A stretch of DNA of 64,000 nucleotides, from IMG/VR virus record IMGVR_UViG_3300045988_120604. One strand, given 5' to 3'. The stretch comes from a virus. The position numbers were made by a program, and so were the translations under genes. This document shows positions 45,667 through 51,142 of this stretch, piece after piece; the first letter of the stretch is position 1, and every line of letters begins with the position of its first letter. A model generated the notes under the pieces. The model worked only from the letters and a program-made list of their open reading frames with translations, was not told the DNA's origin and ran no database searches.

Positions 45667-46022
45667 AAGTCATTGTCTTTAAATCCTTCTGGGTAATATA
45701 CGACATACTTCTTACCGTCTTCTGGTGTCATGGCAAACTGCATATAGTTATTACGATTACGATGCTTGCCCTCCAATCCTCGTTTCCAATACAGGATACC
45801 GTCTATATCCACATAAGATCGGCCGCGGTCGGCTCTAACCACGTCCGTGTGTAGCAGATACCCGTCGGAAGACACAATCCACACTTTATCCCCTTTGCTT
45901 AAATAAGATATTCTTTTTCTTACAACAACCCTTTTCTTATTATCCAATACAAATTCCTCGTCAGTCATACTCTTCATCCTCCTCTTCTTCTGTTTCAAAA
46001 TCAATTCCATAATACTGATCAT
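45663..46022 (-). CDS. Hypothetical protein (119 aa)
   Basis: ORF. Confidence 0.5.
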   Translation of the reverse strand: MISIMELILKQKKRRMKSMTDEEFVLDNKKRVVVRKRISYLSKGDKVWIVSSDGYLLHTDVVRADRGRSYVDIDGILYWKRGLEGKHRNRNNYMQFAMTPEDGKKYVVYYPEGFKDNDL

Positions 46023-46175
46023 AATGCTTGGTCAGTTCTTCTGGTTCTAAATCTTGTCCAAAATCCATGTTAAAAATATCGTAATTAGTAAAGCACTGTT
46101 CCTGCCGGCAGGAAATCTATGAATGCTGCTTTTATTTCTTCAATTAGGCCCAAGTGTAACCTTGGGCCATTGTAT

Positions 46176-47876
46176 TTATTTTTTGTCATCTCCTTTTAGC
46201 TTCTTTAAAGTATCTGCAATCGGAAGCTGATCAATGACTCCCAATGCCGGAGCGACGGTCTTGACAACATTGTTAAGGAAATTACCGGTACTGTTCTGAC
46301 CGCCGTCAAATACTGTGATATTTCCGAGGTTAATGTGCTCAAATGCCTTAACCTGTTCTCCGGCAATTTCTTTCCACTGATTAACCATCTTGTACTGGAT
46401 AGCGATCTGAGGATTGGATTCTGCTGCTTCCACCATGGCCTTAAATCCGTCGGCTTCTGCCATTAACGACTTTTTCTTACCTTCGGCTTCTGCCTCCAGC
46501 TTCATCTGAATAGCTTTTGCCTCCGCCTCAGCTTTTGCCAAATGTGCTGCTGCCTCAGCCTCAGCCCGGCGTTTGATCTTCTCGGCCTCGGCATCAGCTT
46601 GCAAGATAGCCTCTTCCTTCTGGGTTTCAGCCGGCACAATCTTTTCAGCCTTAAGCGCAGCCTGAACTTTCTTAGCCTTAGCTTCTTCCACTTCTTTGTC
46701 GGCAAGCTCTTTTGCTGTTTTTACAGCCGCTTCCGATTTAACTTTTTCTTCTCCGGCCTTCTTCTCTGATTGAGCTTTGATGATCTGTAGTTCTGATACT
46801 GATACAGCAACCTCCTTCTGGGCATTGTTGTATCCTATAGACGCATTTTTCTCAGCCTCAGCCTTCTTAATCTGAGCTTCAGAGTCTTGTATTGCTATAG
46901 CTGCTTCCTTGTCAGCTTCAGCCTTATTCTTTCCGACTTCTTCCATTCTTTCAGCCTCGGCTTTATTTACTTCAAGTTCTGCCTTAGATCTTACGATCGC
47001 CGATTCCTTGTCGGTTAAAGTTTTTGCGATAACCGCAGCCCTGTCTCTATCTGCTTGAGCTACACCGATCTGTTTCTCTTTGTCGGTTAAAGCTAAAGCT
47101 ATTTCTTTTTCTTTCTTCGTTTCAGCTACTATTGTCTCCTTTTCTTTTTCAGTACAAGCAATTTGAATCTCTTGTTCTTTTTTGGTATTAGCCACAGCCG
47201 TTTCTTTTTCCTTCTGCTGTACAGCAATTTTAATAGCACCCAGCTTCTCCTGTTCTTCGATATTAGCCTGTGCCTCGTTCAGAGCCCTACTTTCAGCTTC
47301 CTTACCAAGGTTCATAATATAACCGGCTTCGTCTCTGATGTCACTGATGTTGATGTTCAGGAGGTAAAGACCTAACTTGTTAAGCTCGTTATCAATGTTC
47401 TTTCTCGCCTTATCCAAAAACTCATCCCTGTCAGAATTAAGTTTTTCGATTGTCATTTCAGCAATAATCAAACGCATCTGACCGTAAACGATGTCCGTAA
47501 TAAGATTTTCAGTAGATTCGGTATCCATCCCCAAAAGTCTTTCTGCCGCATTTTGCATGATTTCGGGATTTGTACTGATAGCTACTGTAATGGTCGTAGG
47601 TACATCTACTCTAATATTCTGAGATGACAAAGCACCGGTAAGCTTGCAATCTATTTGCATAGGCTCCATTGACAAAACATCATAGCTTTGAATAATAGGC
47701 AAGACAAATGCCGCTCCACCATGATATAATTTCGCCGATTTCTTTTCCCCACCTGTCTTACCGTAAACGACCAAGACCTGATTAGGTTTACATCTACGAT
47801 ACCTTGATAAGACTCCGATGATTGTCAAAATAATCACTACAGCTAAGATAGCTGACACGTACATGATTGTTGTCAT
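46176..47876 (-). CDS. Flotillin-like SPFH/band-7 membrane protein (FloT/YuaG-like)
   Basis: N-terminal TM helix, SPFH domain (NQVLVVYGKTGG...VLPIIQSYDVLSMEPMQID...), and ~250 aa of A/E/K-rich coiled-coil (flotillin domain). Confidence 0.8.
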   Translation of the reverse strand: MTTIMYVSAILAVVIILTIIGVLSRYRRCKPNQVLVVYGKTGGEKKSAKLYHGGAAFVLPIIQSYDVLSMEPMQIDCKLTGALSSQNIRVDVPTTITVAISTNPEIMQNAAERLLGMDTESTENLITDIVYGQMRLIIAEMTIEKLNSDRDEFLDKARKNIDNELNKLGLYLLNINISDIRDEAGYIMNLGKEAESRALNEAQANIEEQEKLGAIKIAVQQKEKETAVANTKKEQEIQIACTEKEKETIVAETKKEKEIALALTDKEKQIGVAQADRDRAAVIAKTLTDKESAIVRSKAELEVNKAEAERMEEVGKNKAEADKEAAIAIQDSEAQIKKAEAEKNASIGYNNAQKEVAVSVSELQIIKAQSEKKAGEEKVKSEAAVKTAKELADKEVEEAKAKKVQAALKAEKIVPAETQKEEAILQADAEAEKIKRRAEAEAAAHLAKAEAEAKAIQMKLEAEAEGKKKSLMAEADGFKAMVEAAESNPQIAIQYKMVNQWKEIAGEQVKAFEHINLGNITVFDGGQNSTGNFLNNVVKTVAPALGVIDQLPIADTLKKLKGDDKK

Positions 47877-47907
47877 AACTTTTAAAATTTAATTGTTGAT
47901 AAAAAAA

Positions 47908-48402
47908 TTAGATACTTAATTCTCCTTCTTCATATTTTATATTCACCTTGTCACCGTTTTTGTAGGTTTTTCCAGACAAGCATCTTACTCTCATTTGCTC
48001 CTGTCTTCCATTTTTCGAAATATTTACCATATAATGATTCTTCCCTGATCTAAACACTATCTCCACTTCTCTTCCATTTAAATCTTCCGGACATTCGTAC
48101 ACCATTTCTTGCTTTAACTTAAGAAGTAACTTATATACGTAAAACAAAACGATAAAGAAAAGCGACCCTATCACAACCCCTACTAAATGGGAACCCGAAA
48201 AGTAGGTAGTCCAGCTATATCCAAGAATAAAATGTGTTATGCCCTTGAATGATATGATGTCCGACAAAGACATGCTTAAATCAGAAGCACTGTCAATGTC
48301 AATATCCGTATCCAGATCAGATCCTAATATCGACAACAAAAACTGTATAACAAAAGCAAATGACGCTATTAAAGCCATGCATAAAATTATGTCACTTCCC
48401 AT
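47908..48402 (-). CDS. NfeD-like membrane protein (YuaF-like short form) in an operon with flotillin
   Basis: N-terminal TM helices plus a C-terminal beta-barrel segment (NGREVEIV...GKNHYMVNI...SGKTYKNGDKVNIKYEEG). It lies upstream of flotillin, as in the canonical nfeD-floT operon. Confidence 0.55.
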   Translation of the reverse strand: MGSDIILCMALIASFAFVIQFLLSILGSDLDTDIDIDSASDLSMSLSDIISFKGITHFILGYSWTTYFSGSHLVGVVIGSLFFIVLFYVYKLLLKLKQEMVYECPEDLNGREVEIVFRSGKNHYMVNISKNGRQEQMRVRCLSGKTYKNGDKVNIKYEEGELSI

Positions 48403-48462
48403 ATCCTTCTGTTATTATTTTGTAAACAAGATCAGTCATATCTTTTATTATCTTTCTGATTC

Positions 48463-49176
48463 TTACTTTTTCCATTGCTTTCTAATTTTGTTAAATAAGT
48501 ATGTTTTTATGTTTTTCAATCTCTCTTTGTCTGTTTCAGAACTTCCGGTAAATAAATAATCCGGATTGCCTTTAGCCGGCGGCGTAGGCAATTTAGATAC
48601 GGCAAACAACCAATCCATTTCCTTATTCTTCTTAGGCTCCAAATAAGGCTCGGTAGCGATCTTAAATTTTTCAGCTATTAAGTCAAAGAGCTTTGAATTT
48701 TTAAGGTTCATATGAACTGAAAAAGCTTGAGAAGGCGGTTTCCATATGAAGTTACATAAGCTCATTGTATAATCTCCTGACTCTGCTATATAAGATTCCG
48801 TTACCTGAAGTATGACCTCTTTCTTGAATGAGGTGTTACCCATAAACCAACACAACCTGGATTCTGCTTCTTTTCTGCTGACACCTATGTCTTTTGAATA
48901 CGATTCGTACATTCCTATCATAATCTTCAACGTTTCCAGAACCTCGTCTGTCATTTCCGGTGTCTCTATATAATTCACAAAAGACGTTCCTTTGTTGGTC
49001 AATCTCATCACGCCTGATTTTAATTTCTCAACCAGGCCAAGCTCTATATACCTCCCAGCATCTTCTTCCGGCATGGCTTCGGTCATAACCGAATCCTTCT
49101 GTCTTATGGCAAGAAGATTGGCAAGATCATTAGGAGTCATGTCTGATGCTGCAAGTTGTCTGAAATTGATGTACAT
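48463..49176 (-). CDS. Hypothetical protein (237 aa)
   Basis: ORF. Confidence 0.5.
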   Translation of the reverse strand: MYINFRQLAASDMTPNDLANLLAIRQKDSVMTEAMPEEDAGRYIELGLVEKLKSGVMRLTNKGTSFVNYIETPEMTDEVLETLKIMIGMYESYSKDIGVSRKEAESRLCWFMGNTSFKKEVILQVTESYIAESGDYTMSLCNFIWKPPSQAFSVHMNLKNSKLFDLIAEKFKIATEPYLEPKKNKEMDWLFAVSKLPTPPAKGNPDYLFTGSSETDKERLKNIKTYLFNKIRKQWKK

Positions 49177-49391: not shown

Positions 49392-49994
49392 TTAACTGTT
49401 GTACCCTTCTTTAATAATCGAATTTCTACCGGTAGATACCGACTGGCGAAGATCGTCATGTACAGAATCTACCGTAGAATACTTGTTTCTGGTTGTAAAA
49501 ATCACTTCCAGCATCTCCTTGTAATCACCTAAAGCTACTTCGTATCTCGGATCTACTTTGGCTTTTCTTTCGGCCTCGGCATTACTTTTAGCCAGTTCTC
49601 GGTCGAGGAGGTCTTCTTTGATTCGGTCAGCAATCATATCAAGTTCTTTTTTAATAACTTCTCCTGCTGCCCGAAGTTGACCTTCTACGTCACCAAGCTG
49701 GTCTTGGACGGTTCCTATTTCTTTCTTTAAACGATCGTATTCGTTAATCATACCCATATCACCTGCATATCCGGAAAAGTCCTTGATTATTCTGGTTCCT
49801 TCTTTAAGGAGCTCAATGACTCGTCTTTTACGTTCTCTGCTTATTAAAGACGGAAGACGATAATTCATATCCGCCACCGCCTTATCATGTATGGAGTTGA
49901 TTAAAAACATCTCTCTTTCATCTCCTGCAAACTCAGTAAGAACCAAAAGGAACTTACTTATCAGGTATTCGTTTTCTTCTACTGTCAGTCTCAT
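49392..49994 (-). CDS. Hypothetical protein (likely start MRLTVEE at 49994; the track start at 50147 overlaps DnaB)
   Basis: ORF; the start was adjusted to remove a 140-nt overlap. Confidence 0.5.
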   Translation of the reverse strand: MRLTVEENEYLISKFLLVLTEFAGDEREMFLINSIHDKAVADMNYRLPSLISRERKRRVIELLKEGTRIIKDFSGYAGDMGMINEYDRLKKEIGTVQDQLGDVEGQLRAAGEVIKKELDMIADRIKEDLLDRELAKSNAEAERKAKVDPRYEVALGDYKEMLEVIFTTRNKYSTVDSVHDDLRQSVSTGRNSIIKEGYNS

Positions 49995-50008
49995 GGTTCT
50001 TATTTTTT

Positions 50009-51142
50009 TTAATACAATGACTGTTCTTCTTTTGTCTCTTGTTCTTGTTCCTGATTGTCCGTAACGTCTTCCACAGTATAGAGCTTGGGCGGCGTCGGCG
50101 GCTGGTTGGGGTTCACGAACTTCGTCCCGCCCTCCCCGTACATCCACCCATACCCCGGCAGAATCTCTGGGTGGATTGTATTAGTAAGCTCTTCCATACT
50201 AACTTGCCTTACCTTCAGTATATGATGAAACACCAGTCCGGCTGTCCTGAATGATGTTTTGTTTTCAGTTTTAAACCTATCAAGAGTCTGATACCAATCT
50301 TTCCCAAATATCATATACTTATCCAGCCCGTACCTACGAGGATTGTGCAAACCTATCATTAACGTACATAACTGACCCAGCGTATCAGATTGGTAAAAAT
50401 CAGAAAGACGCGGAGGCTGCTCTTGTGGGCTTTTTATCCTTCCTTCTATCTCTCTGTTGAATTGTGATATGATGAGGAAAAATATGTTTTTATATACTAA
50501 TTTAGCTTCGTTCATAACCGCCACCAAATCATCTATAGCCGACTTAGGATCTAACCCCATTCTTTTTATCAAAGCAATATGATCGACTTTAAATATTATA
50601 AGACGTTTGTCTTTGTGTTTGGTAGCTATATGATACACAGCCGCCTCAAACTCTTTTACCGTACACGGAGCATCGATGTATATTATATTATTCCTGATTT
50701 CACCTTGAAGGATTTCAAACATCCTCATCTCTTCCACTGTATTAGAATCTTGCCTTCTTAATATTTCAGGAGCCCGCTTTTTCATATCCCGGCTCATTCT
50801 ACGAAGAAGAAGATCTTGAGGATTCATTTCGAACTCGCAATTAACAAGAAAATAATCTTCTGCTTGCGGGTTGATCATCGGATTCATCACATTTTCCAAT
50901 ATCTTTTGGGCCACATACGATTTACCTACAGAGGGCCGGGCTCCTATGGCAATAGCATGCTGAGGGAAAATACCTCCAAGCAAAGCCTCATCAATATAAT
51001 CGTATCCGGTTTTAGCGGGGATAAGCTCTCCCCGCCTGTATTTCAAGATATTCTCATACGCCTCTTCCATGACCTGTTTAGAGGTCTTGAATATCCTTCT
51101 TATATCTATCCTATTTGCTATCTCCTCGTGCATTTTTGTCAC
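50009..51142 (-). CDS. DnaB-family replicative helicase (RecA-like C-terminal domain)
   Basis: GYDYIDEALLGGIFPQHAIAIGARPSVGKS (Walker A), IIFKVDHIALIK (H2/Walker B-like), IISQFNRE. Confidence 0.7.
   Translation of the reverse strand: MTKMHEEIANRIDIRRIFKTSKQVMEEAYENILKYRRGELIPAKTGYDYIDEALLGGIFPQHAIAIGARPSVGKSYVAQKILENVMNPMINPQAEDYFLVNCEFEMNPQDLLLRRMSRDMKKRAPEILRRQDSNTVEEMRMFEILQGEIRNNIIYIDAPCTVKEFEAAVYHIATKHKDKRLIIFKVDHIALIKRMGLDPKSAIDDLVAVMNEAKLVYKNIFFLIISQFNREIEGRIKSPQEQPPRLSDFYQSDTLGQLCTLMIGLHNPRRYGLDKYMIFGKDWYQTLDRFKTENKTSFRTAGLVFHHILKVRQVSMEELTNTIHPEILPGYGWMYGEGGTKFVNPNQPPTPPKLYTVEDVTDNQEQEQETKEEQSLY

Follow-up and report, generated by a model that had tools for sequence, protein, structure and literature searches.

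A phage-borne copy of the Bacteroidota nfeD-flotillin operon in an epsilon crAss-like phage

Bacterial flotillins scaffold multi-protein complexes. Pairs of a flotillin and an NfeD protein are widespread among bacteria; their physiological role is still debated. Systems described before include the YuaF-FloT pair of Bacillus subtilis, the SPFH-NfeD cage of Escherichia coli (QmcA-YbbJ) and the human cage built of flotillin-1 and flotillin-2. SPFH proteins recruit PspA in membrane-stress repair (PMC8581546), and unfolded proteins are stabilised by FloA-NfeD under stress, as summarised in PMC13086221. Among phages, an SPFH protein is found in the N4-like phage GIB1 (phrog_200, 'lipoprotein'), where the reason for its presence "remains unclear" (PMC13239085). 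Here we describe an NfeD-flotillin gene pair at positions 46,176 to 48,402 of a 64,000-nucleotide viral sequence, IMG/VR record IMGVR_UViG_3300045988_120604 (the whole of this stretch is called the window below). The pair is a copy of the nfeD-flotillin operon of Bacteroidota, carried in the early/replication gene block of a CrAssE-Sib-like epsilon crAss-like phage (proposed genus Epsilonunovirus).

The pair consists of two open reading frames (ORFs) on the minus strand, 31 nt apart, with the ORF of 164 amino acids (aa) upstream and the flotillin ORF of 566 aa downstream. Their parts are as follows.

47908..48402, minus strand: nfeD-like gene (164 aa, ATG start; structure, profile-profile and family-level evidence)
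aa 1-27 and aa 28-47 of the NfeD-like protein, minus strand: N-terminal transmembrane helix and acidic DxDxDxD loop
aa 48-101 of the NfeD-like protein, minus strand: conserved SFKGxxHF helix and second or third transmembrane helix
47911-48099, minus strand: C-terminal OB-fold beta-barrel of the NfeD-like protein (aa 102-164)
47877..47907, minus strand: spacer from nfeD stop to flotillin start (31 nt, AT-rich), holding the left breakpoint (47903-47905) of a recurrent whole-gene flotillin deletion
46176..47876, minus strand: flotillin gene (566 aa, ATG start; Pfam Band_7 and Flot; 'flotillin family protein' in GenBank)
47793..47876, minus strand: N-terminal hydrophobic membrane anchor of the flotillin (aa 1-28; hydropathy), followed by a basic stretch
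47244..47789, minus strand: SPFH/Band_7 domain (aa 30-211; Pfam; 79% identity to the Bacteroides chromosomal flotillin)
46530..47243, minus strand: A/E/K-rich helical (coiled-coil) region (aa 212-449; composition; 50% identity to Bacteroides)
46200..46529, minus strand: C-terminal Flot domain (aa 450-559; Pfam; 78% identity to Bacteroides)

The original prediction placed the pair in a replication/accessory setting of a phage, and this holds. At 97.6% identity the region matches csAssE-Sib (OR575929.1), a 151-kb phage from the human gut that is the epsilon crAss-like phage CrAssE-Sib described by Babkin et al. 2024 (PMC11054128). The pair lies within a long minus-strand block (from about 38 kb onward GC skew is negative) that also codes for a DnaB-like helicase on one side of it and a PD-(D/E)XK exonuclease and a helicase on the other (Pfam and GenBank annotation). 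In csAssE-Sib, GenBank has "flotillin family protein" for the large gene and "transmembrane protein" for its small neighbour; the Joint Genome Institute (JGI) likewise annotates relatives as "flotillin".

The 566-aa protein is, judged by its sequence, a flotillin-branch SPFH protein. Pfam finds Band_7 (PF01145) at residues 30-211 (E = 7.6e-26; 91.7 bits against a cut-off of 23.6) and Flot (PF15975) at residues 450-559 (E = 2.1e-09; 38 bits against a cut-off of 27). A single strongly hydrophobic segment occupies residues 1-28 (Kyte-Doolittle window up to 2.8), with a net charge of +5 over aa 23-45, and residues 212-449 consist for 21% of A, 18% of E and 17% of K. Pfam, hydropathy and composition thus agree with the N-terminal anchor, SPFH/Band_7 domain and A/E/K-rich coiled coil that had been read from the letters alone, and add the C-terminal Flot domain. 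The sole PDB sequence matches at E<=1e-3 are human flotillin-2 and flotillin-1 (9bq2, 9l3g; E = 7e-23 to 8e-19) and cover SPFH together with the first helices. On these grounds the protein is placed nearer to flotillins than to stomatins, prohibitins or HflK/C, and the HflK/C and stomatin branches were rejected for it. The NCBIfam FloT equivalog NF058507 reaches 144.5 bits (E = 5e-42), below its cut-off of 700; the protein is thus a member of the flotillin family without being a FloT ortholog. In PHROGs it weakly matches the phrog_200 'lipoprotein' (E = 6.8e-05). The AlphaFold2 (AF2) monomer, made with a shallow alignment of 10 sequences, has a pLDDT of 43.8 and was left out of the fold search.

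The coiled coil is the least conserved part of the flotillin and differs in length among relatives, and Tandem Repeats Finder detects no DNA repeats that would account for this variation. Two relatives, P0159 (659 aa) and P0169 (622 aa), carry an apparent internal duplication of the SPFH end and the start of the helical region, which is either real or an assembly artefact.

The 164-aa protein is a divergent short NfeD with transmembrane helices and an OB-fold. Its hydropathy profile has two strong hydrophobic segments (residues 1-30 and 67-96) and a weaker one. The AlphaFold model shows helices at residues 2-25, 52-69 and 72-101 and a six-strand beta domain at residues 112-163 (pLDDT about 88); by both approaches the transmembrane helices precede the OB domain. 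The best full-length Foldseek match of this model is YbbJ from the QmcA-YbbJ cage (117 columns across the transmembrane and OB parts; E = 0.016; 9% identity). An exhaustive HMMER search yields a wider family of 434 representatives at E<=1e-3, and the top PDB sequence match of the family profile is B. subtilis YuaF (E = 0.016, or 0.037 with a second alignment). When the family is aligned to YuaF homologs with hhalign, the probability amounts to 94.5% (E = 7.6e-08) over 91 columns, from the last transmembrane helix to the end. A shallow profile of eight sequences, searched against PDB sequences, returned noise alone (Cas12f, E = 0.33).

Direct searches with the phage protein itself find no NfeD domain in Pfam (even at E<=10), NCBIfam or PHROGs. 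Pfam NfeD (PF01957) is reached, however, by 35 of the 79 Bacteroidota members of the same hidden Markov model (HMM) family and by 2 of its 81 metagenomic members, and one member, WP_291136646.1, bears the NCBI name "NfeD family protein". Because its own Pfam search is empty, the putative membership of the 164-aa protein in PF01957 is transitive and based on profile-profile evidence rather than direct. Of the two domains foreseen in the original prediction, SPFH is therefore recovered by Pfam as such, whereas NfeD fails in the direct Pfam search and is established by the AF2 model, the hhalign match to YuaF and the Pfam matches within the family, which together support transmembrane helices plus a C-terminal OB/beta-barrel. 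It also follows that the divergent NfeD escapes the current Pfam model in 79 of the 81 metagenomic and phage-type members, as it does in over half of the host members that were examined.

Gene order provides further evidence. Of 80 Bacteroidota flotillin loci, collected from cellular genomes with the flotillin alignment, 79 have a member of this family as the gene just upstream, and a Band_7/flotillin gene lies directly 3' of the family member in all six testable metagenomic places and in all three further IMG/VR contigs (171-401 kb). The nfeD-floT order noticed earlier is thus present; more exactly, it is the operon found at these 79 Bacteroidota loci. The 'transmembrane' or 'hypothetical' protein annotated upstream of Bacteroidota and phage flotillins should accordingly be corrected to a divergent NfeD.

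Two features are nearly invariant in the family: the acidic D-x-D-x-D-x-D loop (aa 28-47) and, between the hydrophobic helices, an S-F-K-G-x-x-H-F-x-x-G motif (aa 51-61), together encoded at about 48220-48320 of the window. One might guess that loop or motif binds cations. The NfeD-like gene of locus L002 (MT836799.1, 'UNVERIFIED: Bacteriophage sp.', 8.7 kb) closely resembles the chromosomal version of Bacteroides sp. KFT8, its N-terminal half being nearly identical by eye; this record is probably a bacterial fragment rather than phage.

The nearest cellular flotillins are chromosomal ones of Bacteroides and Leyella, with 62-66% identity over the full length. Values are lower for Paludibacteraceae (46-48%) and other Bacteroidota (37-41%). 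By region, identity between phage and Bacteroides is 79% for SPFH, 78% for Flot, 50% for the coiled coil and about 38% for NfeD. The Bacteroides locus that was examined is flanked by fimbrillin/BACON, AAA-ATPase and DUF6078 genes; since these neighbours are non-phage, it is not a prophage. In a neighbour-joining tree (rough, without support values) the Bacteroidaceae clade has the epsilon crAss-like pair as its sister group. The long flotillins from large viral contigs group apart in a clade of their own, and that of Vibrio phage KIT04 falls outside as an outlier; these placements suggest that at least two or three independent phage lineages have flotillins. Because the pair matches an nfeD-flotillin operon that is chromosomal throughout the Bacteroidota, sequence comparison points to capture from a Bacteroidota host as the most likely origin, and as the parsimonious reading of a tree without support values. 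CRISPR-based prediction of Bacteroides, Parabacteroides or Porphyromonas as hosts of epsilon crAss-like phages (PMC11054128) fits this picture of a Bacteroidaceae-related origin.

Flotillin-like genes are rare in phages, in line with the earlier remark that the pair is unusual: only 11 of 50,697 phage records give tblastn matches, several of which are short or probably bacterial fragments. In that search hardly any other phage has the pair, the other crAss-like genomes in GenBank included. It is also present in several other large-phage lineages. One 160-kb metagenomic phage-like contig with the pair (L088) codes, among many small ORFs, for an RF-1-like release factor and an eIF-1a-like protein, and is possibly a phage using an alternative genetic code.

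In close relatives the module has a third gene. For this comparison we used 80 IMG/VR genomes in which the NfeD gene reaches at least 97% identity. An intact acyl carrier protein (ACP) gene of 83-88 aa, with a PP-binding match above the Pfam cut-off and the LGLDSLD serine motif, lies immediately upstream of nfeD in 79 of these 80, in csAssE-Sib and in the sister species, so that ACP-nfeD-flotillin is the usual arrangement. The window retains only a remnant:

48392..48475, minus strand: ACP gene remnant of 27 codons (compare L001 16404-16655)

A 168-bp in-frame deletion took out the core, including the LGLDSLD phosphopantetheine site, a state common to the window and only one other IMG/VR locus. 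The flotillin/NfeD module earlier described as "complete" does have both NfeD and flotillin, with the caveat that the third gene of nearly all relatives is deleted here. No ACP is seen at this place in the other phage lineages with the pair, nor in the single Bacteroides locus examined (L094).

Both genes are under strong purifying selection. In the sister species the order is DnaB, a 200-aa gene, a 237-aa gene, ACP, NfeD, flotillin, small ORFs, exonuclease, two small ORFs and helicase. Synonymous divergence between the two phage species is saturated, hence we give the proportions of nonsynonymous and synonymous differences (pN/pS): 0.110/0.765 for flotillin and 0.227/0.941 for NfeD. The flotillin (82% amino acid identity between species) is no less conserved than the helicase (80%) or the exonuclease (78%). 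Within the species the per-site ratio of segregating nonsynonymous to synonymous changes is 0.054 for flotillin (48 distinct alleles) and 0.106 for NfeD (47 alleles). It is the low values both between and within species that lead to this conclusion.

Despite this selection, about a quarter of the near-identical genomes (about 20 of 79) have a flotillin gene that is missing or cut short. A clean deletion of 1.83 kb removes the whole gene in 11 of the roughly 80 near-identical genomes (L003, L011, L041, L055, L060, L062 and L044, L059, L066, L071, L081), with two junction haplotypes at AT-rich microhomology (47903/47905 to 46074/46077 in window numbering). The NfeD ORF remains intact in the flotillin-deleted genomes. 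Three others carry partial deletions (L006, L023, L076), and six have truncated alleles without part or all of the Flot domain (L037, L038, L058, L065, L078, L079). In-frame products fusing the NfeD N-terminus to the Flot C-terminus occur as well (P0028, P0031, P0034, P0046, P0047; junctions differ), together with an in-frame fusion of ACP to the NfeD C-terminus (P0044). Such fusion proteins stand for further independent deletions across the ACP-nfeD-flotillin module, or possibly for assembly artefacts of Logan contigs. Deletions, truncations and fusions together mark the locus as a hot spot of structural variation and the flotillin as dispensable. The combination of loss and purifying selection argues against an essential platform for replication or assembly and for a conditionally useful membrane module; the conservation survey likewise shows no ubiquitous structural core pair but one that is rare in phages, with a flotillin that is optional among near-identical genomes.

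Taking these results together, we hold with moderate confidence that the pair supplies a host-derived NfeD-flotillin cage as an auxiliary set for host maintenance or manipulation. The genes are host-like, selected and optional, which favours an auxiliary role in upkeep or reorganisation of the inner membrane, and suggests optional host-manipulation genes rather than core phage machinery. By analogy with the flotillin-1/2, QmcA-YbbJ and HflK/C assemblies, the flotillin would insert into the cytoplasmic membrane by its N-terminal anchor after infection and, as in those systems, might use its long helices and Flot domain to oligomerise as a dome-shaped cage enclosing a patch of membrane. NfeD, anchored by its transmembrane helices, may dock its OB-fold on the SPFH ring and promote or stabilise the assembly, again by analogy. 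In the least certain step, the module would supplement or replace the flotillin scaffolds of the host and so keep its inner membrane, and the complexes therein, working during a long or persistent infection. The benefit would depend on the host strain, and the set would be part of neither virion nor replisome. Membrane maintenance is suggested by the roles of SPFH proteins and FloA-NfeD under stress mentioned at the outset, and by the persistence of crAss-like phages, which are described not to lyse cultures (PMC11054128).

A more far-reaching version appears rather doubtful to us, namely that ACP, NfeD and flotillin form a phage-specific membrane-remodelling module. It would build infection-specific cages in Bacteroides, possibly with ACP-dependent lipid changes, and either underpin the persistence of crAss-like phages in a non-lytic carrier state or serve exclusion at the membrane or protection against abortive infection; recurrent loss of the flotillin would then be a trade-off that depends on host genotype. 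If true, this would be the first assigned function of a virus-encoded flotillin and a natural gain/loss system for bacterial flotillin-NfeD complexes.

Superinfection exclusion, or a defence system carried by the phage, is an unlikely alternative. Flotillin and NfeD, made early or in the carrier state, would alter the inner membrane such that DNA entry or membrane steps of competitors fail. The presence/absence polymorphism along with purifying selection on intact copies is typical of conflict or 'moron' genes, the pair sits in an early-type block with many small accessory ORFs, and Epsilonunoviruses code for a repressor and anti-repressors, which suggests long residence in the cell (PMC11054128). 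Neither protein, however, matches PADLOC (PADLOC-DB v2, E<=0.1), and our literature searches turned up no described SPFH-based exclusion or defence system. Moreover, the cellular homologs occur in ordinary chromosomal contexts across Bacteroidota and, as far as examined, not in defence islands, and the proteins are near to housekeeping-type host versions, as the SPFH identity indicates.

We consider it equally improbable that the genes act in counter-defence or as a regulatory hijack, with a cage that would buffer the membrane against pore-forming abortive-infection effectors. Alternatively the cage would bind and hold back, or modulate, a protease or regulator in the host membrane, in the way HflK/C acts on FtsH, and thereby tune the phage's choice between lysis and persistence. 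The 78-79% identity of SPFH and Flot to Bacteroides could permit mixed assemblies of phage and host subunits, while coiled coil and NfeD have diverged. Control of lambda cII by HflK/C-FtsH, cited in PMC13086221, is an established precedent for SPFH proteins in a phage decision, and loss in some genomes fits a benefit that varies with host genotype. Against this, the protein is on the flotillin rather than the HflK/C branch and a client protein is not encoded nearby; the reading is entirely inferential.

An essential membrane platform for phage DNA replication or virion assembly (a platform for these steps was among the options first named for the pair) is weakened as a reading and now seems very unlikely. 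Its location among replication genes (DnaB-like helicase, primase, exonuclease, helicase) would suit such a platform, as would the scaffolding role of bacterial flotillins in general. Among the near-identical contigs, which are mostly long (60-158 kb), about a quarter nevertheless lack an intact flotillin, and the pair is missing in nearly every other phage. That the pair is passenger DNA without function, or a chimera with host sequence made in assembly, can practically be dismissed: although the pair is clearly related to a host operon, the same synteny is found in dozens of independent contigs and the sister species, selection is strong, and divergence from the host in flotillin and NfeD is too large for a recent chimera. 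An auxiliary, host-derived membrane module continues to be our preferred explanation.

No terminator-like site is found in the 31-nt spacer. Past the flotillin gene there is one conspicuous element:

46147..46168, strand not assigned: perfect 8-bp GC-rich hairpin/palindrome (GGCCCAAG-6 nt-CTTGGGCC), 7 nt past the flotillin TAA

It has no U-tract on the gene strand and is the end point, or next to it, of two partial deletions in relatives; from its sequence it might possibly form the 3' end of the transcript or stabilise it. A scan for sigma-70 promoters, which has no meaning for a Bacteroides phage, returned 18 sites against 10.4 expected, none of them interpretable. On the gene strand the Bacteroides -7 motif TAnnTTTG was not found between about 44.3 and 50.3 kb, and with 51 occurrences against 68 expected it is not enriched in the whole window; it therefore permits no conclusion on promoters.

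Two further observations concern the flanks. Twelve related genomes have an extra 354-362 bp at about 46009-46011 of the window, between the region downstream of the flotillin and a 119-aa gene. On the other side a 251-aa ORF beginning with GTG shares about 139 nt with the 3' end of the DnaB-like helicase ORF (49392-50147 and 50009-51142, minus strand). This overlap is also present in the GenBank annotation, and the upstream start may therefore have been miscalled.

The flotillin annotation as such existed before (GenBank, JGI). What we add is the assignment of NfeD, the link to the Bacteroidota operon, the purifying selection, the loss of flotillin at population level and the conserved upstream ACP. 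The CrAssE-Sib paper (PMC11054128) mentions neither flotillin, SPFH and NfeD nor membrane proteins. Literature searches (csAssE-Sib; crAss-like with flotillin; phage-encoded flotillin; SPFH with anti-phage) returned no earlier treatment of an ACP-NfeD-flotillin module and no paper that brings crAss-like phages and flotillin together; a lone 'flotillin' mention in a CBASS paper was judged irrelevant. A very abundant phage lineage of the human gut carries a selected, most likely host-derived copy of the flotillin-NfeD pair. The natural knock-outs circulating in one species (whole-gene deletions, truncations and the ACP deletion) offer ready-made isogenic contrasts, and comparing phage genotypes with and without flotillin could reveal what a flotillin cage contributes during Bacteroides infection.

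Set against known systems, the pair compares as follows. The phrog_200 SPFH lipoproteins of phages lack a Flot domain, unlike the flotillin described here. The 'flotillin family protein' of Vibrio phage KIT04 (BBL19217.1) shares 29% identity over the SPFH region and branches far away; in contrast to the window, no recognisable NfeD of this family lies upstream of it. The human flotillin-1/flotillin-2 cage (PDB 9bq2, 9l3g) contains the closest solved proteins by sequence. It is a hetero-oligomer of two paralogs with an acylation or hairpin anchor and without NfeD, whereas the phage has one flotillin plus NfeD. A template for docking of NfeD on an SPFH ring is given by the E. coli QmcA-YbbJ cage (PDB 8z5g; Tan et al. 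2024, as cited in PMC13086221), even though QmcA is a stomatin-type SPFH protein and the phage protein a flotillin.

The yuaF-floT-yuaI operon of B. subtilis is alike in having a short NfeD (transmembrane helices and OB-fold) immediately upstream of a flotillin, and FloT shares with the phage protein the N-terminal anchor, SPFH, EA-rich helices and Flot domain. Differences are that the phage flotillin is not a FloT equivalog and that identity to YuaF is about 16% in the aligned region; the phage-type family has the acidic DxDxDxD loop and the SFKGxxHF motif. The best counterpart is the chromosomal operon of Bacteroides. In Bacteroides sp. KFT8 (WP_099147419.1, 'hypothetical protein', and WP_099147420.1, 'flotillin family protein') it equals the phage pair in genes, order, strand and short spacer; chromosomal Bacteroides flotillins are 62-66% identical over the full length, and the small proteins of phage and Bacteroides fall into one HMM family (E about 1e-58). 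The phage copy differs in its place within a replication block, its more distant NfeD (about 38% identity) and its variable presence, and the phage relatives by the extra upstream ACP, which is absent at Bacteroides locus L094.

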